This document shows, piece after piece, positions 8,033 through 61,387 of a stretch of 64,000 bases of DNA (its first letter is position 1; the number at the start of each line of letters is the position of its first letter). The DNA is from Eledone cirrhosa (Eukaryota). The stretch spans positions 107,756,001 through 107,820,000 of the forward strand of contig OZ024741.1 of assembly GCA_964016885.1 (NCBI GenBank), read 5' to 3'. A program made the position numbers and the translations under genes. The notes under the pieces are model-generated. The model was not told the DNA's origin and searched no databases. It saw only the letters and a program-made list of their open reading frames with translations.

Positions 8033-8064
8033 CATATATATACATATATATAAATGTATGTAGA

Positions 8065-8307
8065 GTATATTTGGCAATATACTGTATGTTTAATTAAAAA
8101 CATTTTGAAGACCATACGCTATCGGTTTTAAAGTAGGGACTATGTCACTTACTTCTTTTCCGCGAAAGAAGGGAGAGAATCTAACAGTCTGTTTCACGCT
8201 CTTTGGCGATCATCAGAGCCACGCACTCCCTGCTTTCGCCGAACATTATAGAAGATGGATTCTTATAGAATTCCAGTAATAATCAGGAGCTGATTATACA
8301 GAGCGAT
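8065..8307 (-). mobile_element. ~310-bp hammerhead repeat family; other copies at 21915-22125, 22455-22836 and 60630-60993
   Basis: Shared tatttggcaatatactgtatgtttaattaaaaacattttgaagac...; CTGATGA..GAAA core. Confidence 0.7.
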
Positions 8308-8676
8308 TATATATAACGAAGGAGGTGGGGGTAAGGAACCAGATGGACCATAATGCACCAGAGTACTCAATACTTACGGTAATAGAGTGGGTAATAGGAA
8401 AATATTTAAGTCCAGAAATAGCCGTCGAAACGTCTTGAGCTCTGCCGTCGGGGTTAAACATATTCCTATATATATATACATATATATATGTGTATACACA
8501 CGCACACACACACATACACATACACACATATATATATATATATATATATGCATTATATACACATATATATATATTCATGCACACACACACACATATATAT
8601 ATATATATAATGGAAAAATTTGAACAGGGACAAAACAGAGAGGCAGTACAACGAATGTTTATTAATTTCACGCTCT

Positions 8677-8808
8677 GTTACGTCCCTTTACGATCTGCGT
8701 TCAAATCCCGCCGAGGTTGACTTTGCTTTTCATCCTTACAGGGTTGATAAAATAAAGTACCAGTAATGCACTGGTTAATTGCCTTGTGCCTAAAGTAGAA
8801 ACAATTAT
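8677..8808 (+). mobile_element. tRNA-derived SINE, 5'-truncated
   Basis: B box gttcaaatccc plus body ccgaggttgactttgc..ttcatcctta..gataaaataaagtaccag. Confidence 0.85.
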
Positions 8809-12110: not shown

Positions 12111-13430
12111 GTGCGACGCACGGAGCTACAGGCACATTTCGGCCGAACGCCACCGGCTCCGGACGCCCCAGACCCGTTTCTCGCCCTGGGCCGACGACCA
12201 TCTTCTTGGACGCCGGCCCCAGGGCAATTTAGCACCCTGGACGCGTTCGTCGATGCCAGCCGTAGCGCAGTAAATCGTTTCGACTGCCGCCACCGTTCCA
12301 AACGGTATATCTCACGGGGCGAACTCCTCGCTCTCCGCTCCCTCCGTAGCCGAGATGACATCGTCATCAAACCGGCGGACAAGGGAGGCGCCGTGGTGGT
12401 GTGGCGCGCGGACCTCTACACGGCCGAAGCCCTCAGGCAGCTCTGTAACCCCCTCTTCTACCGCCCTCTACACTCCGATCCCACACCCCTCTACCAACAA
12501 CAAGTTTCCTCCACCATACAAAACCTTGTCGCCTCCTCCCTCCTCCCCTCCACCGCTTCCCACCTCATCGTCCGCACCCCCCGCACCCCCACCATCTACT
12601 TCCTCCCCAAACTCCACAAACCCGACAACCCCGGCCGCCCCATCGTCTCCGCTTGCAACTGCCCCACCGAACTCATCTCCGCCTTTCTCGACTCCATCCT
12701 CGCCCTCCTTGTCACCACCCTCCCCTCCCACATCTCCGACACCAACCACGCCCTGCGCCTTTTCGACTTCTTCACCTACCCACCCGGCCCACAGCCCTTC
12801 CTCTTCACCCTAGACATCAAGTCCCTCTATACCGTCATCCCCCACGCCGACGGCCTACGCGCCCTCAAACACTACCTCGACCTTCGCCCCTCCCCCATTC
12901 CCTCCACCCCCACCCTCCTTCACCTCGCCGAGCTGGTCCTCACCCTCAATTGTTTGTCCTTCTCGGGTGAGTTTTACCAACAGGTCACGGGGGTAGCCAT
13001 GGGTACAAGAATGGGCCCGAACTATGCCAACCTTTTTGTTGGCCATGTTGAGGCCCAAATCTTTGCCCAGTACACCGGCCCCACGCCCGAACTGTATGTC
13101 GTTACATTGACGACTGTATCGGAGCCACGACCCTCACCCGAGAACAGCTCGACTCCTTTCTCTCCTTCTTCTGCTCCTTCCACCACTCCCTCCACTTCAC
13201 CACCTCTATCTCCACCACCCACGTCCACTTCTTAGACATCTCCGTCACCTTCGACCCCTCCCACCACTCCCTCGTCACCTCCGCCTTCTTCAAACCCACC
13301 GACTCCCACTCTTACCTCGACTTCACCTCTTCCCACCCCACCCACACCAAACACTCCATTCCCTACTCCCAACTCCTCAGGATCCGCCGCCTCTGTAGCC
13401 GAGATGCTGACTTCGAGTACCAGGCTTCTT
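12111..13430 (+). pseudogene. PLE reverse transcriptase with frameshifts (around 11980 and 13100), truncated near 13430
   Basis: ORF 12111-13235 shifts frame just before YIDD. Confidence 0.85.
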
Positions 13431-14116
13431 CCGACCATCTCTTCATGGAATACTCGTATGTGGAACTTGACCACCGTGGAATCTACTAACATCATAGGAG
13501 TTTACCAACATTTCAACCACATCCTCTTACGGAATCACCCTATATAACTCACCCACACACACACCCAAGAAAATGTTTTTTCTCCCACACGCCACCTACA
13601 CCCACAACACGCTTAAACCCCACACACACGTGCTTTCCACCACATATTTACACCCTCAGCCTCCGGATTCCTATCCCCCCACCCCTCTATCAACACACGC
13701 ACAGACACTCCGACCTACACCCCACCCCACACACACCTCTTCCTGAACATGCAACCCCGTTCTTCCCCCAACCCTTGCTTTCACATACACACACACACAC
13801 ACACACGTACACCTACACACACACGTCACCTTCAGCCCTCTCCGCTCGGACACCCCGTCTCCCTCTACCCACTCCACCCGCAACCACCCCTACACACCCC
13901 ACACCCTTCCACCACCTGTTTTACCCCTTTTTATTTTCAGTTTATTTTGATCATGCTTTTATATTTATTTTTATTTCATTTCATTTTATTTTGAACATGC
14001 TTTATTTTTATTTTTATTTTTAATTTCATTCGCACCGTTTCCTCCCACCCCCTTTTCACTATATGTCTCTCCACCACTCCCCTACACACCCTTTGAACTC
14101 TCTTCCCAACACTTCT

Positions 14117-14150
14117 CACCTGAGGAAGGGCTTATGCCCGAAACGTCGTT
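14117..14150 (+). ncRNA. Minimal hammerhead-like motif of the C-rich PLE pLTR
   Basis: CTGAGGA a gggc-ttat-gccc GAAA cg TC; stem I weak. Confidence 0.65.
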
Positions 14151-14236
14151 CCCCACCACCACCCCACTCTCCAGAGCGTGAAATTAATAAACATTCGTTG
14201 TACTGCCTGTCTGTTTTGTTCCTGTTCAAATTTTCC

Positions 14237-14330
<94 letters not shown>

Positions 14331-14414
14331 AACTTTTAAAAGAAGTGAATCTATCTTGAAATAAACAATATATTAAATTATGTTTAATCGTATATATATA
14401 TATATATATATATA

Positions 14415-14572
14415 AAAGACGTAAGATGAGAAAATATTTTTTAAAAAATTTAAAAAAATTTTTTTACTTACTTACTTAAATTTTCACTCCAACTAATTAG
14501 TTTGTGCAATGGGATAAAGACAGTTACGTAATCCAACTGTCGAGAATTCATTGCGTCATCAGGGAGTCTATT
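14415..14572 (-). mobile_element. Dispersed fragment of the 538-bp hammerhead unit arrayed at 49.6-51.5 kb (GAAA mutated)
   Basis: aaagacgtaa..ttttcactccaactaattagttt..tcatcagggagtctattct shared with 49775-49907. Confidence 0.75.
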
Positions 14573-14615
14573 CTGTGCAGCTGTGCGCCTATGTTAGTTG
14601 ATATATTAAATTATC

Positions 14616-14646
<31 letters not shown>

Positions 14647-14936
14647 ACAAATAACGAAACGAAATTAAATTTCGTTTCGTTTGTAACTCACTTTTGTATG
14701 ACTGACGCTTAAACAATTAAGTCAAAAATGTACATCTACATATGCATACTGAAATACTAGTGTGTATATGAATACACACACGTATACATATGTAGGTGTA
14801 CCAAGTCTTTCACTGGTCGCTTTACAGTGAGCGGCCCAGCTATTCTGTATGTAAACACACAGACAAACCGGTTTTTAGAGTCATACTGGTTTTTGGGGAA
14901 ACACCTTCCCCCTATTCTCCACAAAGCCAGACAAGG

Positions 14937-14981
14937 AATATTGAACTAGTTTCGTTGTTGTTACAACTCATCAGCAATATT
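14937..14981 (-). ncRNA. Type-I hammerhead ribozyme
   Basis: aatattg CTGATGA gttgt-aaca-acaac GAAA ctag TT caatatt: perfect stems I and II, palindromic stem III. Confidence 0.9.
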
Positions 14982-15403
14982 TACCTATCTACCTGCCTTT
15001 CTGGAGAATTGTAAAAGCACATATCGTTATATGCTTTTTCTATGAAAATTAGTAGTGGGCAGACTAATTTGCATAGAGTGTGAGTACGCACCGGTTCAGC
15101 GGAGACGATAAAAACAAATAACGAAACGAAATTAAATTTCGTTTCGTTTGTAACTCACTTTTGTATGACTGACGCTTAAACAATTAAGTCAAAAATGTAC
15201 ATCTACATATGCATACTGAAATACTAGTGTGTATATGAATACACACACGTATACATATGTAGGTGTACCAAGTCTTTCACTGGTCGCTTTACAGTGAGCG
15301 GCCCAGCTATTCTGTATGTAAACACACAGACAAACCGGTTTTTAGAGTCATACTGGTTTTTGGGGGAACACCTTCCCCCTATTCTCCACAAAGCCAGACA
15401 AGG

Positions 15404-15448
15404 AATATTGAACTAGTTTCGTTGTTGTTACAACTCATCAGCAATATT
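15404..15448 (-). ncRNA. Type-I hammerhead ribozyme (second unit)
   Basis: Identical to 14937-14981. Confidence 0.9.
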
Positions 15449-15924
15449 TACCTATCTACCGGCCTTTCTGGAGAATTGTAAAAGCACATGTTATATGCTT
15501 TTTCTATGAAAATTAGTAGTGGGCAGACTAATTTGCATAGAGTGTGAGTACGCACCGGTTCAGCGGAGACGATAAAAACAAATAACGAAACGAAATTAAA
15601 TTTCGTTTCGTTTGTAACTCACTTTTGTATGACTGACGCTTAAACAATTAAGTCAAAAATGTACATCTACATATCAATATTTGAAGATGATTCTTTAGCT
15701 GTTGTTGAAGTGGTTGAAAAAGAACATCTTCTGCAGAGTTCTATACAAGAATATTTCAATAATATGAATTGTCTGGGTGCGTAGTTGGATACAAAGGAGA
15801 CACTATAACGTATATAAAGTGTTGGAATATATGAGAAGTATTCAGTTACTCCAGCGGATGAAATATTGGAATTTAGAATAAATGATTTGGATGTTTAACA
15901 CCTATCAGGTAAACATTATTTCTA

Positions 15925-18094: not shown

Positions 18095-18194
18095 GTAGGA
18101 GGTGAGATCTATTGTAGCACAATAAAGCAATGCAAATATCGGATAAGTAGCACTCAACAGTTTGGAGTATAAACAGACCGGAGTATAAATAATA

Positions 18195-19303
18195 TAAAAT
18201 CAAAAGATGGTTAAAAGAGTTCCATGTATTTTATTATGCGCATTTCAAAAACAAATATCATCATAGGATGATATTTGCGTTCTTATCAGATAAAATAGGG
18301 AGATATGATATGAAGCTTAAAAGACACTTGCGAGCAGTGAAGTGTTAAATCAACATATGAAAAATAAAATAAGATGGATATATGAGATTGGGAAAAAAAG
18401 GAAAGGAATGAGGGAAGGAAAAGGTAAGGAAGAGGAAGAAAGAATATAATAATAAAAAAAAATAATAATAAGGAAAGGATGACGGAGGAGGAGTATAAGA
18501 AGGAAGGATGAGAGAGGAGGAGAAAATGAGTGAGAGAAAGAGAGATAACCTTTAAACATCGTCTCACAGAGAGAAATAAAAAAAACCGTTGTAAGATAAT
18601 GCATAATTTAAAAAAAAAATGTTTAATTAAAAGTCAATGAGGTGATGCTTATGATTAAAGAAAAAGGAATTAAGAATACTATTTATTTAAGGTTTATATA
18701 TTGAAGGGTTTAATAATATTTGCGAAAAGGAATTTATTAAAATGTATTATTAAAATAAAATATATTAAGAAGATAAGGTGAATGAAGATGAGGTTAAATG
18801 AATTATGAACTTAGAGGAATTAATTAGGGCCCAAGTTTGTTTCTATGTATTGTAATAGGAAGAAGTAAATAAGAGGTTTAATACGAGCACGGAAGGAGAG
18901 AAGAAAGGAGACATTCAAGGAAGAAAAAATATATAACGTCAAAAAAATATGTTTACAAAATTAAACTAATGGTAATATTAGTATATATTAAAAATAAAAA
19001 TGTGTATGGCCTCCGTCATCCTTTCCTTATTATATTATTTTTTTCTTATTATATTCTTTCTTCCTCTTCCTTAACTTTTCCTTCCCCCCTTCCTTTCCTT
19101 TTTTTCCCAATCTCATATATCCATCTTCTTTTATTTTTCATATGTTGATTTAACACTTCACTGCACGCAAGTGTATTTTAAGCTTCATATCATGTCTGCC
19201 TATTTCATCTGATGAGAACGCAAATACCATCCTATGATGATATTTGTTTTTGAAATGCGCATAATAAAATACATGGAACTCTTTTAACCATCTTTTGATT
19301 TTA
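18195..19303. mobile_element. Inverted pLTR-like element (arms 18195-18488 and 19010-19303) with a hammerhead in each arm
   Basis: ~290-bp reverse-complement arms inside TA-flanked sequence. Confidence 0.8.
19201..19271 (+). ncRNA. Type-I hammerhead with extended stem II
   Basis: tatttcat CTGATGA gaacgcaaata..tatttgttttt GAAA tgcgca TA ataaaata. Confidence 0.75.
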
Positions 19304-19704
19304 AATTATATATATATATATACATATATATACATATATATAGAGTAATAATATTAAATTTGAAAACTAATATATATATATATTGCATGTGTGTGTTTAT
19401 ATCACGTAACTTAGCTGTTCGACAATTACAGTTCTTACAGTTCTATAGAACTAGGAACGAACTTGAACAAATAATGTGAGGGTAGATAAGGTTTTGTTTA
19501 TGTATATCAATAATGAATGTTTAAACAAGATAACTGCTTACAAGAGAATGTGACTCAGCGGTGTACTTATGAGTAAACAATATATAATGTAGTCAACATA
19601 TTTAGACTATTATAATAGACACAGAAACATATGTTAAAGCCAATAAATCCCTACCCTCCTTTCTCGCCGAAGGCTATATTTTTCTTGGTGGTATACTTGC
19701 TTAT

Positions 19705-20989: not shown

Positions 20990-21269
20990 TTTATTCTCTC
21001 TCGTTCACGATTTCACCGAACTTATATTCATGGAAATTTGGGACTTGACTCGTTCTTCCTCACTTTTCGTTGCGTCACCATCTTTGTTTGTTTATACTCT
21101 CGCTGTCCCCTTTATTTACGTGTCCCAACGACTTTTTTTAGAGGTTGCTCGCACCAATCGGAGGTATATGGTCTTTAAAGCGAAGGAATACCTGTGATGG
21201 TTGGAAGATCACTGACGAAGGACCACTTTATTCATATGTAACCCATTTACAACCACGCAGCACGTTTAT

Positions 21270-21275
<6 letters not shown>
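20990..21275 (+). mobile_element. TA-associated repeat family; copies at 44680-45312 (minus) and 45896-46125
   Basis: Shared gttgctcgcaccaa..gaggtat..tgatggttggaagatcactgaYgaaggac. Confidence 0.75.
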
Positions 21276-21727: not shown

Positions 21728-21953
21728 ACACTGTACGCCTTAATTCGGGATGTTTGTTTGAAAGAGGAACGCCTAAATTTACCAGCACCCAAAACATGGA
21801 GTACCTTTTTAGATCAAGGAGGAATCCTCCCCACAACTGGGGGAGTTCGAAAACGAGATGATTAACATTATCTCCAAATTCTTCGCACACCCACCCAGGA
21901 GTCGGGAGTACCTGATCCAGCCTTTATAATTTTCAGCAGAGGTCGGAGAGTGC

Positions 21954-21999
21954 TAGGCTCTGATGACCACCAACAGTGTGAAACAGATCTGTCAGCTTA
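21954..21999 (+). ncRNA. Type-I hammerhead ribozyme (310-bp family)
   Basis: taggct CTGATGA ccac-caaca-gtgt GAAA cagatctg TC agctta. Confidence 0.85.
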
Positions 22000-22155
22000 T
22001 CTCCCTTCCTTTGTTGAAAAAAGAAGTAAGTGACATAGTCACTACTTTAAAATAATAGCCCAATGTCTTCAAAGTGTTTTTAATTAAACATACAGTATAT
22101 TGCCAAATATACTAAACATATATTCATGTATACATCTACATCACTATTTCAAAAT

Positions 22156-22337: not shown

Positions 22338-22443
<106 letters not shown>

Positions 22444-24069
22444 AATTTATGTATAGTATATTTGGCAATATACTGTATGTTTAATTAAAAACATTTTGAA
22501 GACATTGCGCTATTATTTTAAAGTAGTGACTAAGTCACTTACTTCTTTTTTCAGCAAAGGAAGGGAGATAAGCTGTTTCACACTGTTGGTGGTCATCAGA
22601 GCCTAGCACTCGCCGACCTCTGCCGAAAATAATAAAGGCTGGATTCTTATAGAATTCCAGTAATAATCAGGAACTGATCATACAGAGCGATTGCCGGTCC
22701 AGCAAAAATTGAAAATTAGGATTGGTGCTCTGAAATAGCGATGTATACATGAATGTATGTTTGTATATTTGGCAATATACTGTATGTCTAATTAAAAACA
22801 TGTTGAAGACCTTTCGCTATTATTTTAAAGTAGTGACGATTTTATATTATACACAGGTAACAGTTTTACGAGCAACTTTTAATTAGTATTCTTTGTTCAT
22901 TTTCCCCACAATAATATTTACATTATAATGAATCATTGCCATCCAGTACTCCATAAGTGTTATGAAGCAGCTCTAAGAGGTAAGAAGCACCTATTCTAGG
23001 AGCCATTGCTCTTGTGGGATCATACAACAAGAATAATATTTTGACAGTTTATCAACCCGGGCTTTAGTAGGATCCACTTTCTCAATTTTTCCAAACAGAG
23101 AAATAGAAAAGACTATTGTTATATCGGACAAAGGAAATCATTTCTATTGGTATACATACCGGTTGCATCTCCTGAAAGCAGCATCCCATCTTTACCGTTT
23201 GCAGAATACTGGATTTCAACTGAAAACTCACAGAGCCGGAACAGATACAGCAACAAATCTTTTAACATTACAGTCAATCAACCAATCCACCAGCCCTGAA
23301 GTGCTACTTTTTATATCATTTTATATTGCACTACTCTATATATCAGCCACTAAACAGTGAAAGACAAAATTCACCTCGATGGGATTTATACTCAGAGCTC
23401 AGGGAACGGAACAAAATACACAGGAATTTAATCTGACAACATAACGATAAATAGGTTGCCACAAATTCTGACCAATCTAGCTTTAAAATAAATAAGTGAC
23501 ACTTCACACACATATTTATTTTATGTTAATTTCGTTTTATTGTCGGCTGCTTTCTTCTATAATTATCTGTGTGTGACTTTTCACAATGAGTCACGATGAA
23601 TCAGGAACAACAAATCGTTTGATATCAATCAAACCGGATATCCGGGTAGCAGATTCGTGATTCTCTTTCTATATATACATTTCTTCTAATGAGTGATTGT
23701 ATTATCTGTGTATATAATCGATATCACAAGACGGTGATGTTTCACGGATATATCGATACTGAATTTGTGGTTGGCTACAGCGACAACAATAATACTACAC
23801 ACAACAACAACAACCAAAATGAAATAAATGTTCACTAGGGTGATACGCAGCTACACATAATGATATGATGTATATAAACACATGCACACACGTGTGTGTG
23901 TGTATATATTTATATACACATATAGTGTACATACAAATTCTAACAAAAACATAATCTTAGAGACATAAAAATATAGACACACTCACACAGGCACATATAC
24001 ATACATCAGATGCAGCACTAACCACTACTACTACTACTACTACTACTAGAAATAGTATTAGTAGTAGAC

Positions 24070-37180: not shown

Positions 37181-37238
<58 letters not shown>

Positions 37239-37356
37239 TTGAAAAAATGAAAACGAAGTTTCATTTCTCACTCTTAGTATGGCACTTACTTAAATGTAAG
37301 TATGTATGTATACGTACATACATATATGTATACAGACGTACAGTCGCATGCATATA

Positions 37357-37470
<114 letters not shown>

Positions 37471-37619
37471 CAGGTACACATACATATATGCACGCATCAG
37501 TTTAGCGGATGCTTATTATAACGCCGCTTTGTTCGTTTGTCAACAAACTGAACAGCCTGAATTTATGCCATGCGGTGTTAAGGCAACCACGTCACCTTTT
37601 TGTTCAACACTGACACAGG

Positions 37620-37664
37620 AACGATGTACTAGTTTCAAGCTTGTTAGCTATCATCAGCACCGTT
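37620..37664 (-). ncRNA. Type-I hammerhead ribozyme
   Basis: aacggtg CTGATGA t-agct-aaca-agct-t GAAA ctag TA catcgtt. Confidence 0.85.
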
Positions 37665-37898
37665 TACCCATCTGCCAGATAGTTGAACGTTCGAAAGTAT
37701 ATACTTTCCTTATGAAAATTAACGGCTGAGCAGCCTAATTTGCATATTGAGTGAGTTAAATCGGTCAGGCATACCGAAAACGATAAGTTGAAAAAAATGA
37801 AAACGAAATTTCATTTCTCACTCTTAGTATGGCACTTACTTAAATGTAAATATGTATGTATACGTACATACATATATGTATACAGACGTACAGTAGCA

Positions 37899-37978
<80 letters not shown>

Positions 37979-38171
37979 TGCTACTGTTTGCAAACCGCAC
38001 GGACACTCTATCTCAAAATTATTTTTGAAAAGCATTTAGAAATGCGCAACCGGTAAAAACTTAAAACCACAACTGAATACTAACCCATACAATCACTAAT
38101 ACTCTTTTATTCCTAATTAAACCATTTTTCAACTGTGAACAATTTGTCAGCATTTTCTATTCCGTTTACCA

Positions 38172-38202
<31 letters not shown>

Positions 38203-38351
38203 CAGGTACACATACATATATGCACGCATCAGTTTAGCGGACGCTTATTATAACGCCGCATTGTTCGTTTGTCAACAAACTGAACAGCCTGAATTTATGC
38301 CATACGGTGTTAAGGCAACCACGTCACCTTTTTGTTCAACACTGACACAGG

Positions 38352-38396
38352 AACGATGTACTAGTTTCAAGCTTGTTAGCTATCATCAGCACCGTT
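38352..38396 (-). ncRNA. Type-I hammerhead ribozyme (second unit)
   Basis: Identical to 37620-37664. Confidence 0.85.
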
Positions 38397-38713
38397 TACC
38401 CATCTGCCAGATAGTTGAACGTTCGAAAGTATATACTTTCCTTATGAAAATTAACGGCTGAGCAGCCTAATTTGCATATTGAGTGAGTTAAATCGGTCAG
38501 GCATACCGAAAACGATAAGTTGAAAAAAATGAAAACGAAATTTCATTTCTCACTCTTAGTATGGCACTTACTTAAATGTAAGTATGTATGTATACGTACA
38601 TACATATATGTATACAAACGTACAGTAGCAGTTCAGTTTGTTGACAAACGAACAAAACGGCGTTATAATAAGCGTCCGCTAAACTGATGCGTGCATATAT
38701 GTATGTGTACCTG

Positions 38714-38819
<106 letters not shown>

Positions 38820-38872
38820 TGCTACTGTACGTCTGTATACATATATGTATGTACATATACATACATACTTAC

Positions 38873-41443
<2,571 letters not shown>

Positions 41444-41753
41444 TATATATATATAAGCAGAAGGGATATTCAATTTGTTGGTAATTCAACACATATCAAT
41501 GTTTATAACTGATTCAGAGCACTCGACAGCTTTCTGGAGTATAATATTCAATGATATTAAATAAATGGAAACTATATTTATAAAACCATATTTAGTCTAT
41601 TATATATATTTCAAGAGTACCAACATTTTGCTACGCTATCATCAGATAAAATACGAAGTCTGTTTTATAAATATTTGAGATAACCAAGGAATCTATGCTT
41701 TAACGGTTCAAGTTTTCCTTGGATATATATATGTATATATTTTTTTATATATA

Positions 41754-44679: not shown

Positions 44680-45312
44680 AAAACATGACAAGAAAGAAGA
44701 ATACTGCGTGGTTGCACATACGTTACATATGATAAAAATAGTCCTTCGTCAGTGATTTTCCAACCATCATTGGTATTTCATCACATTAAAAATCAGATAC
44801 CTCAGGTTGGTGCGAGCAATAACTAAAAAAAGTTATTGGGACTAGTAAATCGCGTAAAGCGAGGGGGACAAGTGAACAACATAGAAGGATAAAAGCAAAC
44901 CAAAGAAGGGAAATAAACAAGCAACATGGTAGTCCTGGTCAGCATAAGCTGGGTGGATTTCATGAGCGAAAGGTACAGACACGTCCAGCATGAGTGGGAT
45001 GTAAGCAAGAAGAGACCCACTGTTAGCCAAACGGGAGGAAGTGAGAAGGTGAGAAACAGAGAGTGAGTGAGTGGAAGTGCGAGGACGCGGTCGTTCGAGA
45101 GAAAGTGTAACTGACAGAGGGGGCGAAAGAAGGTGAGAGAAACAGAGAGAACGGGGAAGCAGTAATAGAGAAACAGACAAACGCAGCCGAGGTGAATATA
45201 TATAAAAAACATGAGAAGAAAGAAGAATACTGCGTGGTTGCAAATAGGTTACATATGATAAAAATAGTCCTTCGTCAGTGATTTTCCAACCATCATTGGT
45301 ATTTCATCGCTT
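44680..45312 (-). mobile_element. Partial tandem element (period ~526 bp, ~105-bp direct terminal repeats), TA-flanked
   Basis: 44680-44783 repeated at 45206-45310. Confidence 0.75.
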
Positions 45313-45784
45313 TATATATAAGCAGTAACATTAACATACTGTTGGTTTACAATGGGGGGAATATAATATATGCTTGTATATTAAATATACAAGAGTCTCG
45401 CGATGTATATTTTAAGCTGCAATCATGCCATATCTCAGGAACAATCATGCCATATTTCAGGAACTAGGCAACCTAACACTATAGGCAAATGAATATCTGC
45501 ACAAAATGTATATAAGCTACTGCTTACACTTGGCGATGTACCGATGGCGGATAAAATTCTAGAAACACTTGCCTGACATTTTCAATTGGCTACTGAGCTA
45601 CATGCATCATGATCACATTATAAATCTTCATAGCGAGACTGTTGGATTATATTTCACCTGTCATTCAAAATGAAAATAACGTTTTCCAAAGAAGTGTCAC
45701 ATGAGCATTTCAGTGAAAAAGATATTTGAATATGAAACAAAACAACATATATATATATATATATACAAATATATATATACATAC

Positions 45785-45898
<114 letters not shown>

Positions 45899-46140
45899 AT
45901 TCTCTCGTTCACGATTTCACCGAACTTAACTTTATAGAAATCTGGGACTTGTCTCTTTCTTCCTCATTTTCTGTTGCTTCACCATTTTGTTTGTTTACCC
46001 TCGCGTCCCCTTTATTTACGTGTCCCAACGACTTTTTTTAGCCGTTGCTCGCACCAACCGGAGGTATATGGTCTTTAAAGCGATGAAATGCCTATGATGG
46101 TTGGAAGATCACTGATGAAGGACAAACTTTTTTTTATATG

Positions 46141-46181
<41 letters not shown>

Positions 46182-46609: not shown

Positions 46610-48674
<2,065 letters not shown>

Positions 48675-49584: not shown

Positions 49585-49588
<4 letters not shown>
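48780..49588. mobile_element. Rearranged pLTR fragments of the 39-41 kb PLE family; hammerhead at 48932-48974 (minus); hairpin at 49396-49532
   Basis: Matches 38975-39470; gtca CTGAAGA ggtcata..tgtgac GAAA gaac TT tgac. Confidence 0.85.
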
Positions 49589-49646
<58 letters not shown>

Positions 49647-49652
<6 letters not shown>

Positions 49653-51509
49653 TTAGTACATCTACCAACATATGCGTACAGTTGTACACTAATGCCAGCA
49701 AATATATAAGTCATGTCATAGTACCTAGGTGGTTCTATGCAGGGCGATGCAGAACAATTATATGAAAGACGTAAAATAAGAAAATTTTAAAATTAAAAAT
49801 TAACTTACTAAAATTTTCACTCCAACTAATTAGTTTCTGTAATGGGATAAATATAGTTACGCAATATAACTATCGAGAATTCATTACGTCATCAGGGAGT
49901 CTATTCTCAGCTAAGTTCCCAGGCAATGCGCGGACACTAGGAACTCATATAAAAATAATAATTCAGTGGATGGAATAGCTAGCGAGGACTAAATTCCATA
50001 GCACTGGCAGATTCTAAAGAATCAATCACATGACACTGAGATTAGTCAGTAGGAGTGGGGTGGTATTATGACAAGAGCCTACTACTACTACTATGAATTA
50101 GCAGTGGATTTGGCAAGTTTGCTCAACAAATAAATAATTTGGAGATAAATATAGAGAATTAGTACATCTACCAACATATGCGTACAGATGTACACTAATG
50201 CTAGCAAATATATAAGTTATGTCATAGTACCTAGGGGATGCAGAACAATTATATGAAAGACGTAAAATAAGAACATTTTAAAAATTAAAAATTAACTTGC
50301 TTACTAAAATTTTCACTCCAACTAATTAGTTTCTGTAATGGGATAAATATAGTTACGCAGTGTAACTGTCGAGAATTCATTACGTCAACAGGGAGTCTAT
50401 TCTGAGCTAAGTTCCTAGGCAATGCGCGGACACTAGGAACTCATATAAAATAATAATTCAGTGCATAGAACCACCTAGGTACTATGACATAACTTATATA
50501 TTTGCTAGCATTAGTGTACATCTGTACGCATATGTTGGTAGATGTACTAATTCTCTATATTTATCTCCAAATTATTTATTTGTTGAGCAAAGTTGCCAAA
50601 TCCACTGCTAATTCATAGCAGTAGTAGTAGGCTCTTGTCATAATACCACCCCACTCCTACTGACTAACCTCAGTGTCACGTGATTGATTCTTTAGAATCT
50701 GCAACTTGACCAGAGGCAGTGAACTTTTTCAGTGCTATGGAATTTAGTCCTCGCTAGCTATTCCATCCACTGAATTATTATTTTTATATGAGTTCCTAGT
50801 GTCCGCGCATTGCCTGGGAACTTAGTTGAGAATAGACTCCCTGATGACGTAATGAATTCTCGATAGTTACATTGCGTAACTATATTTATCCCATTGCAGA
50901 AACTAATTAGTTTGAGTGAAAATTTTAGTAAGTAAGTTAATTTTTAATTTTTAAAATTTTCTTATTTTACGTCTTTCATATAATTGTTCTGCATCCCCCT
51001 GCATAGAACCACCTAGGTACTATGACATAACTCATATATTTGCTAGCATTAGTGTACATCTATACGCATATGTTGGTAGATGTACTAATTCTCTATATTT
51101 ATCTCCAAATTATTTATTTGTTGAGCAAACTTGCCAAATCCACTGCTAATTCATAGTAGTAGTAGTAGGCATTTGTCATAATACCACCCCACTCCTACTG
51201 ACTAACCTCAGTGTCACGTGATTGATTCTTTAGAATCTGCCACTTGACCAGAGGCAGTGAACTTTTTCAGTGCTATGGAACTTAGTCATCGCTAGCTATT
51301 CCATCCACTGAATTATTATTTTTATATGAGTTCCTAGTGTCCGCGCATTGTCTGGGAACTTAGCTGAGAATAGACTCCCTGATGACGTAATGAATTCTCG
51401 ATAGTTACATTGCGTAACTATATTTATCCCATTACAGAAACTAATTAGTTGGAGTGAAAATTTTAGTAAGTTAATTTTTAATTTTTAAAATGTTCTTATT
51501 TTACGTCTT
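49647..51509. repeat. Array of a ~538-bp hammerhead unit: about 1.6 copies minus, then about 1.95 copies plus (inversion at ~50462)
   Basis: Plus units start at 50463 and 51001; hammerhead cores at 49819-49900(-), 50315-50396(-, mutated), 50836-50917(+) and 51374-51455(+). Confidence 0.9.
51374..51455 (+). ncRNA. Type-I hammerhead with extended, interrupted stem II
   Basis: actcc CTGATGA cgtaatg..atagttac-attgc-gtaactat..cattaca GAAA ctaattag TT ggagt. Confidence 0.8.
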
Positions 51510-52408
51510 GAACAAAACGTATCTCTAGGATCTCGTCGAATAGAAAAATTTTCGACGAAAAGGCCCAATACTATAATGAAGCATTAGCTAGGGCAGGATA
51601 TGCTGATAAGATTGTGTACATAGATAATGATAGACAAACTAAACAAAGTAACAACTTTTTTAATTACGGCAACAACATTAATAACTATAATAGAAAGCAT
51701 TACAATAATTCCAAAGGCCAAAAAAGAAATAGAACTAGGAACATAATTTGGTTTGCCCCCCCTTTCTCACTAAACATTAAAACCCACATCGCTAAATTAT
51801 TTTTCAAAGCTCTTGATAATCGCTACCCTAGAACACATAGGTATCACTCAATTTTCAATCGGCATACAATTAAATTAACCTACTCATCCACCAAAAATTT
51901 AGCACAAAATATTAATAGAATAAATAATAGGAACTTAAAACCTAGTGATAATAGCATAAATAATATACAAGTTAACAAATGTAACTGTAGAGATAGATCT
52001 AAATGTCCGTTAAATAACAACTGCTTAGTTAAAAATATAGTATACAATTGTAATGTTAATACTGACTCTAATTCTTTTAACTACGTCGGTTCCACATCGA
52101 CGGAATTTAAACTTCGCTATAATAACCACAAGAATTCTTTCACAGATCCAAGTAAAAAATCTTCAACGGCACTATCAGGCGTACTCTGGCAACTTAAGCT
52201 AGATAACGTTAGATATTCGACGGCTTGGAATATAGTCTCAAGGGGGATTCCTTTTAATTCATCCTCTGAGACATGTGACCTCTGCGCAGAGGAGATATTC
52301 TTTATACTAAAATCTAAAAATTCCCTTAATCTACGGACAAATTTATTCAGTTGTTGCAAACATAGATTAAACTCAACGTTTAAATATAAATTTAAATTTA
52401 AAATGTAG
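51510..52408 (+). CDS. 5'-truncated PLE thumb, Cys-rich linker and GIY-YIG endonuclease (different PLE lineage)
   Basis: KRISRISS..YNEAL..GY, IIWFAPPFS, IFNRHTIKLTYS, CNC..CPL..C..IVY..YVGST..FKLRYNNH, CDLC..E, CCKH. Confidence 0.88.
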
Positions 52409-53855
52409 TATATTTAGTTTGATTTATATTTATATGGGAAACTAGCCGATAAATTTTTGATTCCTAAATTTTTGATTCCTTCTTTTTATTCTTTTTTTTT
52501 TTTTTTTTTTCTATTGTTTATTTTTATTTTTATTTTATTTTTATTTAAACATTCCTCATGAAAAATTAAGCTACCCTAAAAGCTGATGCTCCAAATATTT
52601 TGAATAAACCTTACACTAGATAAACTTCTATATTAAATATAAGAACACATGTAGACTAAATTGGACATCATAAACTTTTTGAAATGATCTTTGCTAGATG
52701 TGATTTGATAGATAATTTTTGGCTTTGTCTTATAATGAACTTGGCAATATATTGTCAATTAATTTTGAAGGGTTGATCTTTGTGGTTTATTTTTATTTTT
52801 TATTATTGTAGTATTTTATAATATTTTTTATTTTTATTTTTAATATTTTTAATATCTTTAATATGTAAATTTTTTAATACGTAACATTTTTTAATACGTA
52901 ATATTTTTTAGTATGTAATATTTTTAATATGTAATATTCTTTCGTAATATTTTTTTATTTTTTTATTTTTTTAGTTTTCTATTTTATTATTACTTATTAT
53001 TATTATTGTTATCTTTTTATTTTTAGTTTTGTTTCTGATATATATTTTTATTAGTATATTGAAATCTGCTCTCTATTTCTGCTTGATAGATAATCTTGTA
53101 GAGTAAAGACAGGAATAATAATACACATATATGTATACTCAAATTTTTATACCACAATGAGAATGTTTTCCGTGAACTTAGAGTTTGCAGAGTTGATAAT
53201 GTGGATTCACATGGATGTTTGTAGCTATAACATAAACATATGAATTTTTTTAAAACTAAACATAAGATAATTAATTTTCACACACTATGGATACTTGTCT
53301 CATTCAGGAATACTGATATTTACAATATAGTGGAAGTTTTATGAATTCTAATACATTAAGACATAGGGTTTTTACGCCTCGAATATATCTGGCTATTTTT
53401 AAATTTTTTCTCTCGCTATTTTCTCTCTCTCTATATTTTTTTCTCTCTCTATATATATCTCCCTTACATTAATACTAGAGCTAAATAAATAAATAAATAA
53501 ATAAATGTATCATTGATACATTTACTCAAAATGACCTCCCACTACCTAATTTTCTATATATATATGTATCTATCTCTATTTCCTCTCTCTCTATATACAT
53601 ATATCTCTTTCTGTTTCTTTACATGAAGTTCTTCTCTTTATCTATCTTTCCATCTCTATATTTTGTTCCATGCATTTCTTCTTTTTCTTCCTTTTCTTCG
53701 TTTTCTGTCTATCTTTCTTTCTTTTTTCTCTCTTTTTTTTCTCTATTTCTTTCTCTCTGTGTAAAATTTTTTCACTGCCAGCTTAACCTCTTCAAATGCA
53801 AGTCGGTGTTATAACGGTATGTCGAATCTATTTATCTATAAAACTGTTTATATTG

Positions 53856-53921
53856 TATTTTGTCTGAGGAAGGCATAGCATATTGTTAATATGATATCCC
53901 CGAAATATATATAATGAAATA
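53856..53921 (+). ncRNA. Type-I hammerhead in a pLTR-like 3' end
   Basis: tattttgt CTGAGGA aggcatagcatatt-gtt-aatatgatatcccc GAAA tatata TA atgaaata. Confidence 0.7.
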
Positions 53922-54049
53922 AATATGGTTTTATAAATATAGTTTCCATTTATTTAATATTGTAAATATACTCCAAATATTTGTCGAGTGCTTTTATATC
54001 AGTTATAAATATTTACTAGTTGTAACCCAACAATTTTAAATATAACTTT

Positions 54050-54100
<51 letters not shown>

Positions 54101-55960: not shown

Positions 55961-57472
55961 TCAGGATTTGGGCACCATGGCCCATTCGAGAAGAGAATTA
56001 CTGTTTGCCGGTTCATATCCGGGTGTGGGTGGTTTGTCCGGGATTACTTGGAGGAATTTGTCCAAAGACTTCTTGAATTTTGTGTGGTCAGTTTCTGTTT
56101 TGACGTGTCCTGGTGTGATGTTGAAGAGAGCAGGGCCAATTGAGGTGAAATAATTGTGCCGTATTGTTGTTATGAGTTGCGATTTAGATTTTTGTTTGGG
56201 ACGGATAGCACGGGGCCCAAGCCTTGGGTGTATTTTGAAGGTGATGCCAACATCATTTGGGCAGTGATGATGAAACATTTTCCACATCATGCAGATAATA
56301 TAACGCTCACGGCGACGTTGGAGTGAGTAAAGTTTCAGCTTTTCTAGTCGACCCCAGTAGTCAAGGTCTGACATGCCATCTATCTTTTTCGTGATTGCCC
56401 TTTGAGGAGCTTCAAGTTTCATGATACTTTGTTTCGTGTGGGGAGACCACAGTGGACAACAGTATTCAAGGTGTGGTCGGGCAAAAGTAGAGAAGAGAAG
56501 GATAATGGTGTGGGAATCTCTCGGCTGGAAGGTTCTGAGGATCCAGGAACACATTCTGCGGGCCATGTCAACTTTGCTGCTTATATGCGTGGCCCAGCTT
56601 ATGTTGCTGTCCACGGTTACTCCCAAGTCTCTGATGTTGTTAGATGCCACGAGAGTTTCACCGGAGGGAAGGGAGTACGGGAGTTTCAGAGCATCCTCTT
56701 TTCCAAAGTGGATCAGTTCGAATTTGTCTTCGTTCAGTAACATGTTGTTCTTTTCCGCCCATTGGGTAACAGCCAGTAGGTCTGACTGAAGGCTTATCCG
56801 GTCATCCACGCCATTGATGACCTTTTGGAGCTTGGAATCATCAGCGAAAATTTTAATGTTGCTGTGTTTGATGAGATCAGTGATGTCATTAATATAGATG
56901 ATGAAGAGAAGTGGGCCCAACACAGTGCCTTGTGGGACCCCACTACTGACTTTGGCTGGGTTGGATTTGACTCCTTCAACTACAACATGTTGGGTTCTGT
57001 TTGACAGGAAGCTCTTGATCCACTGCAGCAGCTTCCCAGTGCAACCAATATTGGACAGTTTTCTCAGTAGAATGTTGTGATCAACCCTGTCAAAGGCCTT
57101 GCTGAAATCAAGGTAGATAACATCAGTGTTGGAACCCACTCCCAAGGCTCTCAAAATGTCATCAAAGTGATGCAGTAGCTGCGTCAGGCAATCCCTTCCA
57201 TTACGGAATCCATGCTGGTTGGAGTTCAGCATATTGTTACTCTCAAGGAAGTGGGTCATTCGCGATCTCACCACTCTCTCGAATACCTTAATGATATGAG
57301 AGGTGAGTGAGATTGGACGGTAATTCACGGCAAGGGATTTGTTTCCTTTTTTGAAAACTGGGACAACAGACTGGGATAGAAGGTTTTCTGGCACATATCC
57401 AGCATCCAGTGAGTTCCGCCACAGATTGGCTAGAGGAGATGCAAGTTGGTGTTGACACGCCTCAAGACACAA
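55961..57472 (-). CDS. LINE ORF2 reverse transcriptase part, separated from the endonuclease part by a 1-nt deletion near 57462
   Basis: NYRPISLTS, QHGFR, YLDFSKAFD, SGVPQGTVLGPLLF, FADD, RDLGV, RPHLEYC, LYSLQRRRER. Confidence 0.93.
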   Translation of the reverse strand: MCLEACQHQLASPLANLWRNSLDAGYVPENLLSQSVVPVFKKGNKSLAVNYRPISLTSHIIKVFERVVRSRMTHFLESNNMLNSNQHGFRNGRDCLTQLLHHFDDILRALGVGSNTDVIYLDFSKAFDRVDHNILLRKLSNIGCTGKLLQWIKSFLSNRTQHVVVEGVKSNPAKVSSGVPQGTVLGPLLFIIYINDITDLIKHSNIKIFADDSKLQKVINGVDDRISLQSDLLAVTQWAEKNNMLLNEDKFELIHFGKEDALKLPYSLPSGETLVASNNIRDLGVTVDSNISWATHISSKVDMARRMCSWILRTFQPRDSHTIILLFSTFARPHLEYCCPLWSPHTKQSIMKLEAPQRAITKKIDGMSDLDYWGRLEKLKLYSLQRRRERYIICMMWKMFHHHCPNDVGITFKIHPRLGPRAIRPKQKSKSQLITTIRHNYFTSIGPALFNITPGHVKTETDHTKFKKSLDKFLQVIPDKPPTPGYEPANSNSLLEWAMVPKS

Positions 57473-59079
57473 GCAGGGAACCTATCGGGACCTACTGCTG
57501 AATTATGCTTGATTTCCTTTATTGCCGCTAAGACATCAGGGGCGCCAAACGTTATGTCCGATAAGGTGTAATGGGGAGTAACATCGCCGATACAGCCCAG
57601 ATCGGCCATATCAGGATTGCTGAAAACAGAGCAGTATTGTTTCTGCAGTATCTCACCCATGGTTTTAGCATTGTCTTGAAGAGTGCCATTTTCATCAATT
57701 AGAGGGCCAACAGTAGAGCCAGTGATTTTGTGTTTTTTTGCAAATGAAAAGAACACTTTGGGATTGAGTTTGATCTTCTCAATGGCCCAGGCCTCTTCAG
57801 CTCTTCTCTGATTGTTGATGATAGACATTATGTTGTTTTGGAGGTTATGTTTTTTAATCTCTAGTGATGAAATGGCAGTCAAGTTTATGTGTTGCTGCTG
57901 ACAGTATTTCAGCTTGTTGATTTTTTTGTTCGCTCTCTTAATTTTCCTGATGAGCGTTTTTCTATTTCTAGGGATTCTGCTCTTAGATTTGTTTATAGTT
58001 CTTAATGGGGTGTGTTTTGCACACGTGTTTGTAAGATTGTCCACAAATGTCTGACAGGACTTTTTGATGTTAGTGGGTGTATGAGTGTGCGTGAAGGACC
58101 AGTCGACATGTGCAAGATCATGACTGATCGCTTCCCAGTTTGCATTGTGGAAATCCATAGCGTCAAACGGATGGACAGGAGAGATGACATTGGGTTTGTA
58201 TATTGGACGGTGGAATCTCAGATCACAGAGAACCATGTCATGATCAGAGAGTAGAGTTTTCTCCACTGCAATATTGTGGATATTGTCAGTGTGATTGCTG
58301 AAAATTAAGTCTAGGACGTTTTTGTGGCACCTCGTTGGTTCGAGCACCAGTTGGGACAGGAAGAAATCATCCATGAAGTCAAGAAGCGATTCCACTGCTT
58401 CCCTGTCAGAGGTTGAGGCAGAAGAACCTGGTGGCAGGCTGTTTGTGGACCAGTCAACTCCGGGGAGGTTGAAGTCCCCCATCATTAAGATGTTGTCAGG
58501 GTGACACTCTTGGATGAAACACTTTATGCTGTTGAGGCATTCCTTGAAGCATGGTAGAGGCGTTTGGGGTGGCCTATAGAGCCCAACTACTATTAGGTTG
58601 TTGGTTTGACTGAATACAGTGACTGCTTCGCAGTATCCATTAGTAAATATGTTCATAGCCTCTGTTGAGAAAGAATTATGGACATAAATGGCAGTCCCAC
58701 CCTTTCTTCTGCCAGCGCGATCAGCACGGATGGCTTTGAAATTTTTCACTTTCACCTCGGCTTCCAAGTGGAGGTTACTGAGATGGGTTTCAGTGAGGAC
58801 GAAGAAAGGGATGTGGTTTGGATGGACATCAACCCAGTCCTCCAGGAATTTGATCTTCCATTTTTGAGTATTGGTGGAAGGGCTGAAGCCTTGGGCGTTA
58901 AGCAAAAATGTTGAGGCGAGAGTGGATGGTTTTAATTGTTTTGGTGTGTTGTTAATTTGTTTGTTTGTTAATGGCAGCAATGGGAGTTTGTGCAGTGGGG
59001 TGATAGTGGAGGGTGGTGCTGGGTGATAGCTCGAATGTTTTTTTCCAGTTCTTTTGCCAGATTCATTATGGCTAAAAAA
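57430..59079 (-). CDS. LINE ORF2 APE endonuclease part; frame open from the slippery site, with no AUG before the catalytic motifs
   Basis: LLNAQG, LTETHL, RADR..GG, YRPP, GDFNLP, LDLIF, SDH, GPD. Confidence 0.9.
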   Translation of the reverse strand, partial: FFSHNESGKRTGKKHSSYHPAPPSTITPLHKLPLLPLTNKQINNTPKQLKPSTLASTFLLNAQGFSPSTNTQKWKIKFLEDWVDVHPNHIPFFVLTETHLSNLHLEAEVKVKNFKAIRADRAGRRKGGTAIYVHNSFSTEAMNIFTNGYCEAVTVFSQTNNLIVVGLYRPPQTPLPCFKECLNSIKCFIQECHPDNILMMGDFNLPGVDWSTNSLPPGSSASTSDREAVESLLDFMDDFFLSQLVLEPTRCHKNVLDLIFSNHTDNIHNIAVEKTLLSDHDMVLCDLRFHRPIYKPNVISPVHPFDAMDFHNANWEAISHDLAHVDWSFTHTHTPTNIKKSCQTFVDNLTNTCAKHTPLRTINKSKSRIPRNRKTLIRKIKRANKKINKLKYCQQQHINLTAISSLEIKKHNLQNNIMSIINNQRRAEEAWAIEKIKLNPKVFFSFAKKHKITGSTVGPLIDENGTLQDNAKTMGEILQKQYCSVFSNPDMADLGCIGDVTPHYTLSDITFGAPDVLAAIKEIKHNSAVGPDRFPACVLRRVNTNLHLL

Positions 59080-59806
59080 GAGGAAGAAGTTTCCTGTTTA
59101 GGAGACTGTTGGTGACTGTGGTAGTGGTTATTTTTATGTAGTTTATGGTTTTTGTTTTTGCTTTTATTTTTATTTTTATTTTTATTTTCATTTGTCCGAC
59201 GGGTCCCCGGGAGATGGGTAAAGGGACAATCCCGGTGTAAACACAATCTATCTCGCAGGGAAAAGCGGCAGATTTGTGGATTCCTTGTTTGAGTTATTGG
59301 TGGTTGTGTTGGTGTTAAATTAGAGTATGTATTATGGTGGTGGCTGTTTGTAGGGATAGACCGTTTTGTCCTAGGTAAATGGATGAATTTGCAGCCACTA
59401 TCCATACATATTCTATAGCGTAGAGAGTAGCGGCAAATGATGGGGTTTCGAGTGGGTGTGTATGTGTGTGTGTGTGTTGTGAGAGGTGTAGATGATGGTT
59501 TGAGTAGGTTTTGACGACCTTTGTGGGCTGTGGGAGGGAGAGTTCTTGTACTGGTATTAGAAGGTAAATTCCTTGAGATAGCAGTAGGCAAAGATGTTGT
59601 AGTAGTAGTAGTAGTAGGCAGAGAAGATGTTGGCAGTGGTGATGATTGGACTGCTGGGCCAGAGAAAGGAAGTGGTGTTTCCTGCTGTGAGATAGAGGCT
59701 ACTGGGAGGTCAATAGTTTCATTTAGTAGATCGGCCATTGTTGATGAATCAAGGAGTGGTTCACACTGTTGTTGTTGTTGTCGTCGTTGTTGTTGTTGTT
59801 GTTGCC

Positions 59807-59840
<34 letters not shown>

Positions 59841-60098
59841 GACAGCATCCGAAGAAAAAACACACCGTAGTTTATCCAAATGTTTATTGATTAATTTAAA
59901 AGCAACTTCGATTTGCTTTAATTTATTTTGAATCTGTTGTTCAGATCGGGTTTTCAAAAGGTGAACTGTACGTTTAGCAATGGCGTTCAGACATGAAGCA
60001 TCTATGTCTTCTGTTTGGGTAAGGCAATGCCATGTGTTTATTATAATGTCGATTTCATAATCAGACCAGTTCTGTTTGGATTTTTGCTGGTTAGCCAT
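58968..60098 (-). CDS. LINE ORF1 (376 aa from MANQQ): Myb/SANT-like N-terminus, polyQ, two CCCH-type zinc fingers
   Basis: WSDYEIDIIINTW..IA..RSEQQIQNKLK; CRYSLRYRICMDSGCKFIH; CRFSLRDRLCLHRDCPFTH. Confidence 0.8.
59073..59079 (-). promoter_or_regulatory. Candidate -1 ribosomal frameshift slippery site U_UUU_UUA
   Basis: tcT TTT TTA in ORF1 phase; -1 frame has TAA at 59100-59098 and is then open into the endonuclease. Confidence 0.7.
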
Positions 60099-60134
60099 TC
60101 TAGTTTTGAGTGTGTGTGTTTTAGTTAAGTATTT

Positions 60135-60225
<91 letters not shown>

Positions 60226-61387
60226 AATATATATACATATATATAATAAAATTATGTGTCCTATATTTAATTAATACATACAGGGATACAAGTATAGTCC
60301 GTATGCCAGTGGTTCAATAATGTTCCTAACCAAAACTGATTCATTCTGAGGCAGTTTGGTATGGCGCTAGTTTGTAATTTGAACTCGGGAATTTTATATT
60401 CTGCGAGAGAGAAAAGCCTTCTAACGATGATCTCTTTCTCAATAGAAATTCACTTGGATTGTCTATTTATTTGGGATCTGAAACTGCGGTAAAGGCACAT
60501 ATAGTAAGTACAGTGAATTTTTTGGAATTTAATTATTTATTAATCAGTTCTTAGATATGCCAGCTCTGTGTGTATAATGTTGATGGTATCAGAGCCTTTG
60601 GACATATATATATATATGAATGTATAAATAGTGTATTTTGCAATACACTGTATGCTTAATTAAAAGCATTTTGAAGACATTACTCTATTGTTTTAAAGTA
60701 GTGACAATGTCACTTACTTCTATTTTCAGTAAACAAGGGGAGATAAGCTGACAGAGCTCTGTTTCTTACTTGTTGGTACTTATTAAAGCGCAGCACTCCT
60801 CTTGTACGCTGAAAATTATGAAAGTTGGATTCTTATAGAATTCCAGTAACAATCAGGAACTGATTATACAGTGCGGTGGTTGCCGGGCCAGCAGAAATTG
60901 AAAATTAGAATTGGTGCTGTTAAATAGCGTTATATATATGAATGTATATATAATGTATTTTGCAATATACTGTATGCTTAATTAAAAGCATTTTACATAC
61001 ACTAAGATTTAGATTTAGTAGAATGTACAACCACTGATTCCAGCTATTTGCACTATCATATATTTTGGTTTCTAGTAAATTGCTTAATTGTATTATTTAT
61101 TTTAAAAGAAATTTTATTCTTTCTCTTAGATTTCAGATATTTTTTGAAAGCATAGCATTGACCCCTAAAACACTATAGTGGGCGCTGCAATGCTATTGTG
61201 GGCTCCTGAAAAGGTACCGTGGGCCCGTTGGGCAACCTGGCAACCTGGCCTGTCCGCCATTGCTTATGATTGTGTTGGTGTATGTCTGTGCATATAAATA
61301 TATATACATGTATATTCCTATATATAGATGCAGAAACAAACGCACACTTGCTCAAACACCCACACACGCAGACAGACAGACAGACAG

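Follow-up and report, generated by a model that had tools for sequence, protein, structure and literature searches.

The window analysed here, 64,000 nucleotides of Eledone cirrhosa (assembly GCA_964016885.1, contig OZ024741.1, positions 107,756,001 to 107,820,000 of the forward strand), carries at 49647-51509 an array of a 538-bp non-coding repeat with a predicted type I hammerhead ribozyme, followed directly by a 5′-truncated Penelope-like element (PLE) at 51510-54051. We found that the array shares both of its outer ends with a second insertion of the same repeat at 14.4 kb and is complete in itself, with both family-typical ends and no need of any PLE part. Its fixed ends, inverted arm and (TA)n target make a PLE-type enzyme very probably its mobiliser. 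A sequence-only reading had instead seen in the whole block a single integration, in which PLE reverse transcriptase (RT) switched from its own RNA onto a retrozyme circle or multimer.

A tandem repeat with a predicted hammerhead

Unit numbering follows copy P1 (50462-50999, plus strand; alignment, open reading frame (ORF) list and fold), whose 538 bp are unit 1-538. Self-comparison of the window and alignment resolved the array into 1.6 units on the minus strand and 1.96 units on the plus strand, in agreement with the roughly 1.6 and 1.95 copies and the switch near 50462 proposed before. The left end lies at a (TA)n(GA)n tract (49588-49646), the target. The inverted arm (49647-50463, minus), read in the sense of the ribozyme, runs from unit 307 at 50463 to unit 538 (copy Ma), through one unit (Mb) and on to unit 1-95 (Mc), and ends at 49647 in (GA)n(TA)n; it carries a 15-nt deletion across the unit boundary after Ma and a 27-nt deletion within Mb. 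Its outer end, unit 95, is the long end of the unit family, and the right end of the second plus copy, P2 (51000-51509; unit 1-514 by alignment, without a 4-nt AGTA), lies within 1 nt of the family's short end. The two arms meet at 50462/50463, where an exact overlap of two letters (TG) sits in a stretch of which 8 of 10 letters fit both sides. P2 then meets the PLE at 51509/51510 without spacer, as had been noted. No stop-to-stop frame of at least 80 aa was found in 49647-51509. Folded over one cleavage-to-cleavage length, P1 was more stable than its shuffles in the sense strand (z −5.6) and also in the antisense strand (−3.7), with an ORF control at +0.75; folding supports a structured repeat, and supports its strand weakly.

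The hammerhead motif was present in all four units that span it, with an intact core in three. The motif of P2 (51374-51455, plus; core motif and fold) has a 5-bp stem I, CUGAUGA, a C-A mismatch, a 6-bp stem II, GAAA and a palindromic stem III, with a predicted cut after the GUU at 51450, and its helix II is topped by an internal loop and an 8-bp apical hairpin. Mb (49819-49900, minus; core motif, fold and word search) also has an intact core, while alignment placed an altered core, CTGTTGA, in Ma (50315-50396, minus), and fold and pair count found the first pair of stem I broken in P1 (50836-50917, plus; predicted cut after 50912). Fully intact ribozymes are predicted only in Mb and P2, on different arms; the preprint cited below takes two intact ribozymes in succession as its sign of an active retrozyme. 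A 20-nt word of the ribozyme occurred at five places in the window, four in the array and one at 14485-14504, and in none of 100 shuffles. Over five copies 112 of 115 cells were paired, against 26-44% in slid controls. Two pairs were altered on both sides, in the solo copy, which among so few sequences is not beyond the shuffle control (86/500). Rfam gave no hammerhead match in 49650-54050 (E ≤ 10); the evidence for the ribozyme is therefore its core motif, its fold and these two compensatory changes.

The predicted ribozyme is similar to the PLE-type minimal hammerheads, which have a long helix II and a palindromic helix III and work as dimers (PMC4209133). The unit shares with them the long helix II, the short helix I, the extra base 5′ of helix II and a palindromic helix III that would suit cleavage as a dimer. 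Unlike them, it adds an A before GAAA, and with the apical hairpin its stem II region reaches 51 nt. Pairs of PLE-type hammerheads on opposite strands, 100-700 bp apart, are already on record in the same paper.

Reads and contigs of four runs were compared with 50972-54055; two samples of one organism and one other organism were represented by contigs, and one further sample by raw reads from restriction-site-associated DNA (RAD). The unit proved variable and multicopy, with many variant contigs or reads in all four runs. A head-to-tail joint, from 51509 back to 50978, was carried by 38 raw RAD reads with 7 starts (X13), and an inverted joint of the family, 50979/51442, was found at another locus in X1 contigs. 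Molecule ends at 51087, 51396 and 52259 coincide with AATT words of the RAD library and were set aside. A search with a word of the unit gave no match in metagenome contigs.

Head-to-tail units, a type I hammerhead motif per unit, the lack of coding capacity and a dispersed multicopy family identify the unit, as judged from these sequence features, as a new family of non-LTR (lacking long terminal repeats) retrozymes, that is, a putative non-coding hammerhead tandem repeat. It resembles the animal non-LTR retrozymes (Cervera and de la Pena 2020, PMC7229834; preprint of Li, Clavereau and Pollet 2026, 10.64898/2026.07.22.740005) in its layout, in the hammerhead of each unit, in the structured monomer, in its dispersed copies and in the presence of PLEs in the same genome. 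Its 538 bp exceed the 170-400 nt given for invertebrate retrozymes and fall inside the 51-972 bp of the preprint, and its stem II differs from those of known retrozymes, as far as the cited parts describe them, in being very long and branched, with a basal C-A mismatch. PLEs have been proposed as the mobilisers of animal non-LTR retrozymes (PMC7229834; review PMC11722881), and the preprint derives retrozymes from the pseudo-long terminal repeats (pLTRs) of PLEs, arguing from co-occurrence and a tree.

Shared insertion ends and PLE-type mobilisation

A second insertion of the unit family lies at about 14409-14613 (minus; self-comparison and alignment), where the sequence-only reading had placed a solo fragment at 14415. 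The family was recognised correctly there, but the copy is an inverted two-arm insertion and not a plain fragment: a reversed piece, from unit ~97 to ~57, is joined to a forward piece, unit ~368-515, with (TA)n on both sides. The right outer end lies at unit 514 in the array and 515 in the 14.4-kb copy, and the left at 95 and 95-99, respectively. Given that the inner breakpoints of the two insertions differ and their outer ends are the same, the ends are a property of the family. Summed contig depth, a rough measure, peaked just inside both ends and fell past the long end (from 193k to 55k in X1 and from 471 to 161 in X4). Both unit insertions in the window therefore have two fixed ends and an inverted 5′ arm, and because it shares both outer ends with the 14.4-kb copy, the array is a complete insertion.

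This anatomy is that of PLE insertions. PLE protein in vitro nicks AT-rich DNA and extends both strands, and its RT starts cDNA at two fixed internal sites of the RNA without homology to the primer; the stretch between the two start sites corresponds to the genomic tail (Poseidon of Anolis, PMC11167929). Inverted 5′ arms and tails are typical of PLE insertions (PMC8557442), and action of a PLE in trans on pLTR-bearing RNA has been reported in a rotifer (PMC3846280). The array bears the same signature, with cDNA starts at two fixed internal positions, one inverted arm and insertion into (TA)n, and resembles the insertions of these papers in its head-to-head arms with one end longer, in fixed ends shortly downstream of a hammerhead and in the AT-rich target. 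It differs from them in a template that is ORF-less and multimeric and in a tail of ~118 nt, not 30-40 nt. The inversion, which the sequence-only reading had noted, is ordinary for PLE insertions and recurs in the 14.4-kb copy, at the joint 50979/51442 and in other repeats of the window.

We also asked what kind of template the array implies. By hand count, which excluded nine misaligned columns at joints and one past the left end, copy-specific substitutions numbered 26 in ~1850 nt of array (1.4%; P1 6, P2 7, Mb 4, Ma 6 and Mc 3), and the four units differ by 2-5%. Their shared variants conflict: the AGTA indel pairs P1 with Ma, site 497 pairs P1 with Mb, and all four combinations are present. 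The family contains copies with and without AGTA (it is present in 22 X1 contigs), and Ma's variant at unit 403 is also frequent in it. Units copied from a single monomer circle should be identical, so the heterogeneity makes it unlikely that one such circle was copied 3.5 times. The template was more plausibly a multimer derived from a heterogeneous source array, or a set of several RNAs, and slippage and conversion are a possible source of the differences. In the earlier proposal of a retrozyme circle or multimer, the multimer thus fits better than a monomer circle.

Copying of one arm from the other by fold-back was considered and rejected. Ma is not closer to its mirror partner (10/217 differences to P1 and 7/203 to P2), and the minus arm extends 119 unit positions beyond the PLE joint, so that the arms have no mirror symmetry.

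For the array we infer an RNA template and propose the following course. A PLE-type RT-endonuclease would act in trans on the RNA of the non-coding hammerhead repeat and nick a (TA)n tract on both strands. With a multimer of the unit RNA as template, cDNA synthesis would begin at two fixed internal sites, which lie 63-64 nt and ~182 nt past the ribozyme cut, and the two 5′-truncated cDNAs would then join head to head through short homology, giving the inversion and a 118-nt "tail". A TA-targeting PLE family, such as the Hydra-clade one that adjoins the array, is a candidate source of the enzyme. The array anatomy is better evidence for PLE-driven mobilisation than the fusion to the PLE, which the sequence-only reading had put forward as physical evidence of a PLE-retrozyme link; the link itself is supported by the array.

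In the cited parts of PMC7229834 and the preprint, the case for PLEs as the source of the enzyme that copies animal retrozymes is argued from co-occurrence and likeness to pLTRs. In contrast, the evidence here is insertion ends and inversion: a protein-less hammerhead repeat has been inserted twice independently with both of its fixed ends in common, and an inverted arm and (TA)n complete the marks of internal initiation by PLEs. From these marks two start sites are predicted on a defined 538-nt RNA. In the literature searched, neither a retrozyme-PLE chimera nor PLE tail ends on a retrozyme appeared in titles or abstract openings, which is weak evidence of absence, with most subscription papers and the preprint's supplements outside its cover.

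A second non-coding tandem array, of another family, lies at 37237-38878. Its hammerhead cores are at 37657 and 38389 on the minus strand; it inverts at 38628, every unit contains an internal run of TA, and its two arms end in TA ~60 nt apart. Its anatomy matches that of the array at 49647-51509. Within it, at 37970-38172, a piece of another repeat family directly abuts an inverted 14-nt copy of the sequence flanking the TA run, which resembles a snap-back on the TA palindrome.

The adjoining PLE and the joint

The PLE begins at 51510, and a frame open for 298 codons (51512-52408) begins 2 nt past the unit end. According to protein alignment and motifs, 51510-52408 (plus) is probably a 5′-truncated ORF of the Hydra clade, comprising the end of the RT thumb, a linker and a GIY-YIG-type endonuclease region, which bears out the thumb and GIY-YIG assigned to it before. 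The frame aligned with residues ~440-710 of four ~700-aa proteins at 36% identity, and a CxCX5C linker and the CxxC and CxH motifs were read in this alignment. DKT was found in all four of these longer relatives and RWK in three (RWR in one), in a region that is truncated away in the fragment. Protein searches gave relatives at 32-40% identity only. The fragment weakly matched the Pfam-positive GIY-YIG ORF of the window (E 0.002); Pfam itself assigned no family to the fragment or to two of three relatives, and gave weak unrelated matches for the third. Hydra-clade PLEs insert into (TA)n and have hammerheads (Craig et al. 2021, PMC8557442 section 11). The element at 51510-54051 fits this clade by motif description, in its CxCX5C, CxxC/CxH, 3′ hammerhead and 3′ end in (TA)n, with RWK and DKT in its full-length relatives (36-39% identity). 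At ~51630-51720 the ORF holds an Asn-rich insert of ~20-27 aa before the linker, which the four relatives lack; on a small scale it recalls the N-rich inserts that have been reported for PLEs of rotifers.

Downstream of the ORF the PLE has a long AT-rich 3′ region (52409-53855, plus; reads and contigs), its own predicted hammerhead (53856-53921, plus; core at 53864, predicted cut after 53913) and a terminal part, 53922-54051, followed by (TA)n. Reads and contigs place the ends of its family at 53970 and ~54049, which are 57 and ~136 nt after its own cut site. The core at 53864 groups with copies at 41408-41673 and 7757-7854, so this hammerhead belongs, as the sequence-only reading had it, to a different family from the unit, and the self-search of the window likewise found no unit 3′ of the ORF. 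The distance from stop codon to hammerhead is ~1.45 kb, whereas 30 of 79 related loci show a same-strand core pattern no more than 300 nt past the match (a loose pattern, counted by hand); these loci are 32-43% identical and were used for hammerhead position only. Spacers of 0.9-1.5 kb before the 3′ pLTR are described for rotifer PLEs (PMC3846280). In X1 the hammerhead end 53856-54051 is ~20-40× deeper than the ORF; short 3′ fragments of this pLTR family are thus extremely numerous.

The usual look of a PLE insertion, with an inverted arm, direct repeats and a truncated ORF (PMC8557442), raises the alternative that the unit is a second or upstream pLTR of this PLE family and the block an ordinary partial-tandem, inverted PLE insertion. 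The PLE is covered as a repeat up to 53443, and no read or contig of the four runs covers the link 53444-53752, which leaves room for such an arrangement. At other loci, however, the ORF connects from 52207 to 53956, and the 3′ region from 53271 to 53809, with the partners on opposite strands. The ORF body and the 3′ region are thus joined elsewhere to a 53864-type end, so the unit is not the pLTR of this PLE, and the data support the 53864 family, distinct from the unit, as its own terminal repeat. Moreover, the window has no unit 3′ of the ORF, the unit joins itself head to tail in the raw reads of another sample, and the two hammerhead regions have no alignable likeness. We consider it very improbable that the unit, named beforehand as possibly the PLE's own pLTR, has this origin.

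An assembly error between two repeats, at the joint or at the inversion, is equally hard to credit. Inverted and tandem repeats are difficult to assemble, and among the 24 pieces listed of 9784 no read or contig bridged 51509/51510 by 31 nt on both sides. On the other hand, the four units, at 2-5% difference, do not represent collapsed copies, the position of the joint coincides with a biologically defined end, and the same anatomy recurs at 14.4 kb and at the locus with 50979/51442.

If the joint is real, it could have arisen in one event or two. The likelihoods that we attach to these readings are judgements and were not computed. We lean towards the view that the array is one complete PLE-made insertion and that the PLE piece is a separate insertion stacked in the same TA tract; should a PLE enzyme be the mobiliser, two events become likely. 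The PLE piece would then be a 5′-truncated insertion at the edge of the tract, made before or after the array, with the intervening TA lost. Among five single-arm 5′ ends inspected in the window, three touch non-TA DNA directly (15674, 21915 and 8677), two keep a short TATATA (8308 and 45322) and none lies in a long TA tract. Moreover, different repeat families repeatedly share a TA tract (for example 14613/14644, 36972/37237, 38878/38919, 41342/41455 and 49587/49647). Because stacking and zero-spacer 5′ ends are frequent in the window, a truncated PLE landing after the array would often look like 51509/51510. A nested PLE-in-PLE insertion and 5′ joints without target-site duplication are on record (PMC3846280).

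Several observations weigh against this stacking. The joint retains no TA, the block 49647-54051 is bounded by TA on both sides, as a single insertion would be, and the PLE piece has no inverted arm of its own. The ages overlap: the 1.4% of the array compares with at least 5/897 (at least 0.6%) in the ORF and at least 6/412 (at least 1.5%) in the 3′ region of the PLE, measured against reads and contigs, a comparison that gives no verdict on order. No allele with the array alone or the PLE alone was seen in the reads and contigs over 50972-54055, and since both outer flanks of the block are (TA)n, no target-site duplication can be read. The 5′ ends without spacer that serve as controls may themselves be chimeric, and the argument from shared ends draws on two insertions in one window and a rough depth profile.

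The same observations can be turned into a single integration, in which the RT of the Hydra PLE copied its own RNA from 54051 to 51510, stalled and re-initiated on a retrozyme RNA at the short start site. The PLE ribonucleoprotein would have been loaded with retrozyme RNA and the stalled cDNA would have served as primer, and the other target strand would have primed the inverted arm at the long start. The zero spacer, the common polarity, the confinement of TA to the two outer edges of the block, the similar divergence of array and PLE, and the PLE piece without an arm of its own all agree with this course, as does the trans action reported for pLTR-bearing RNA (PMC3846280). Because PLE RT can start without homology to the primer (PMC11167929), a single integration would be expected to land at unit 514. 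However, the array is whole without any PLE part, stacking is common in the window, as are 5′ ends without a spacer, and the heterogeneity at AGTA and site 497 speaks against one monomer circle as template. The question raised by the sequence-only reading, whether the unit is joined to this PLE family at other loci, was answered in the negative among the 15 joints listed of 27, none of which runs from the unit to the PLE body; an X4 contig (88% alike) matches 51517-51701, and its further 67 nt on the 5′ side are unmatched to the unit.

The joint lies at the short start site of the unit family, its normal end. Stacking predicts a joint there because the array ended there and TA followed, and re-initiation on retrozyme RNA predicts the same joint because the protein determines the start site. 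Such a position excludes only a random mid-template jump, and as both readings predict the joint, the prior decides between them. Nothing at the locus favours a single event over stacking. A single event is possible, though we think it unlikely, and the earlier proposal of one integration is not supported as it was stated, given the complete array and the zero-spacer ends (3 of 5). If true, it would be a PLE/retrozyme chimera naming the helper family of a retrozyme, and it would show that PLE tandems can form when the enzyme re-initiates on a second RNA, as well as by copying around a circle.

Less probable still is a later deletion, in which TA originally lay between the array and a longer copy of the PLE, and this tract and the 5′ part of the PLE were lost together. 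The break lies at the natural end of the array, where the microsatellite would have begun, and the array itself has deletions of 15 and 27 nt. Such a deletion would nevertheless have to break exactly at the edge of the tract, and 5′ truncation is the normal state of PLEs and needs no extra event.

Other repeats in the window

Beside the 14.4-kb copy, a 467-bp tandem unit (14644-15674, minus; 2.2 copies) carries a compact type I hammerhead (Rfam HH9, 38.5 bits, under the gathering score). Its 3′ end shares the TA tract with the unit copy, and its 5′ end lies on non-TA DNA. At 8610-8810, a 5′-cut copy of a short dispersed repeat abuts, head to head and with no gap, 68 nt from the 3′ end of the PLE at 11739-14238. 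The dispersed repeat has a B-box-like word, and we take it to be similar to a short interspersed element.

Two further repeat families have hammerhead-like cores. One (44681-45322, 20990-21275 and 45896-46142), with a CTGACGA/CTGATGA core and a putative hammerhead, has 3′ ends in TA and a 526-nt spacing in its tandem copy. The other (21915-22138, 22434-22840, 8058-8308 and 60605-60994) has a 308-nt spacing and several 5′-truncated copies, with ends in TA. Four more long elements have inverted arms. Those at 2859-4547 and 39357-40980 contain PLE ORFs with Pfam GIY-YIG matches, and those at 46720-48674 and 18184-19314 have hammerhead-like core words and no ORF of 150 aa. At 55961-60251 (minus) lies a long interspersed element with an RVT_1 match, an upstream endonuclease-like frame recognised by eye and a Gln-rich ORF1-like frame.

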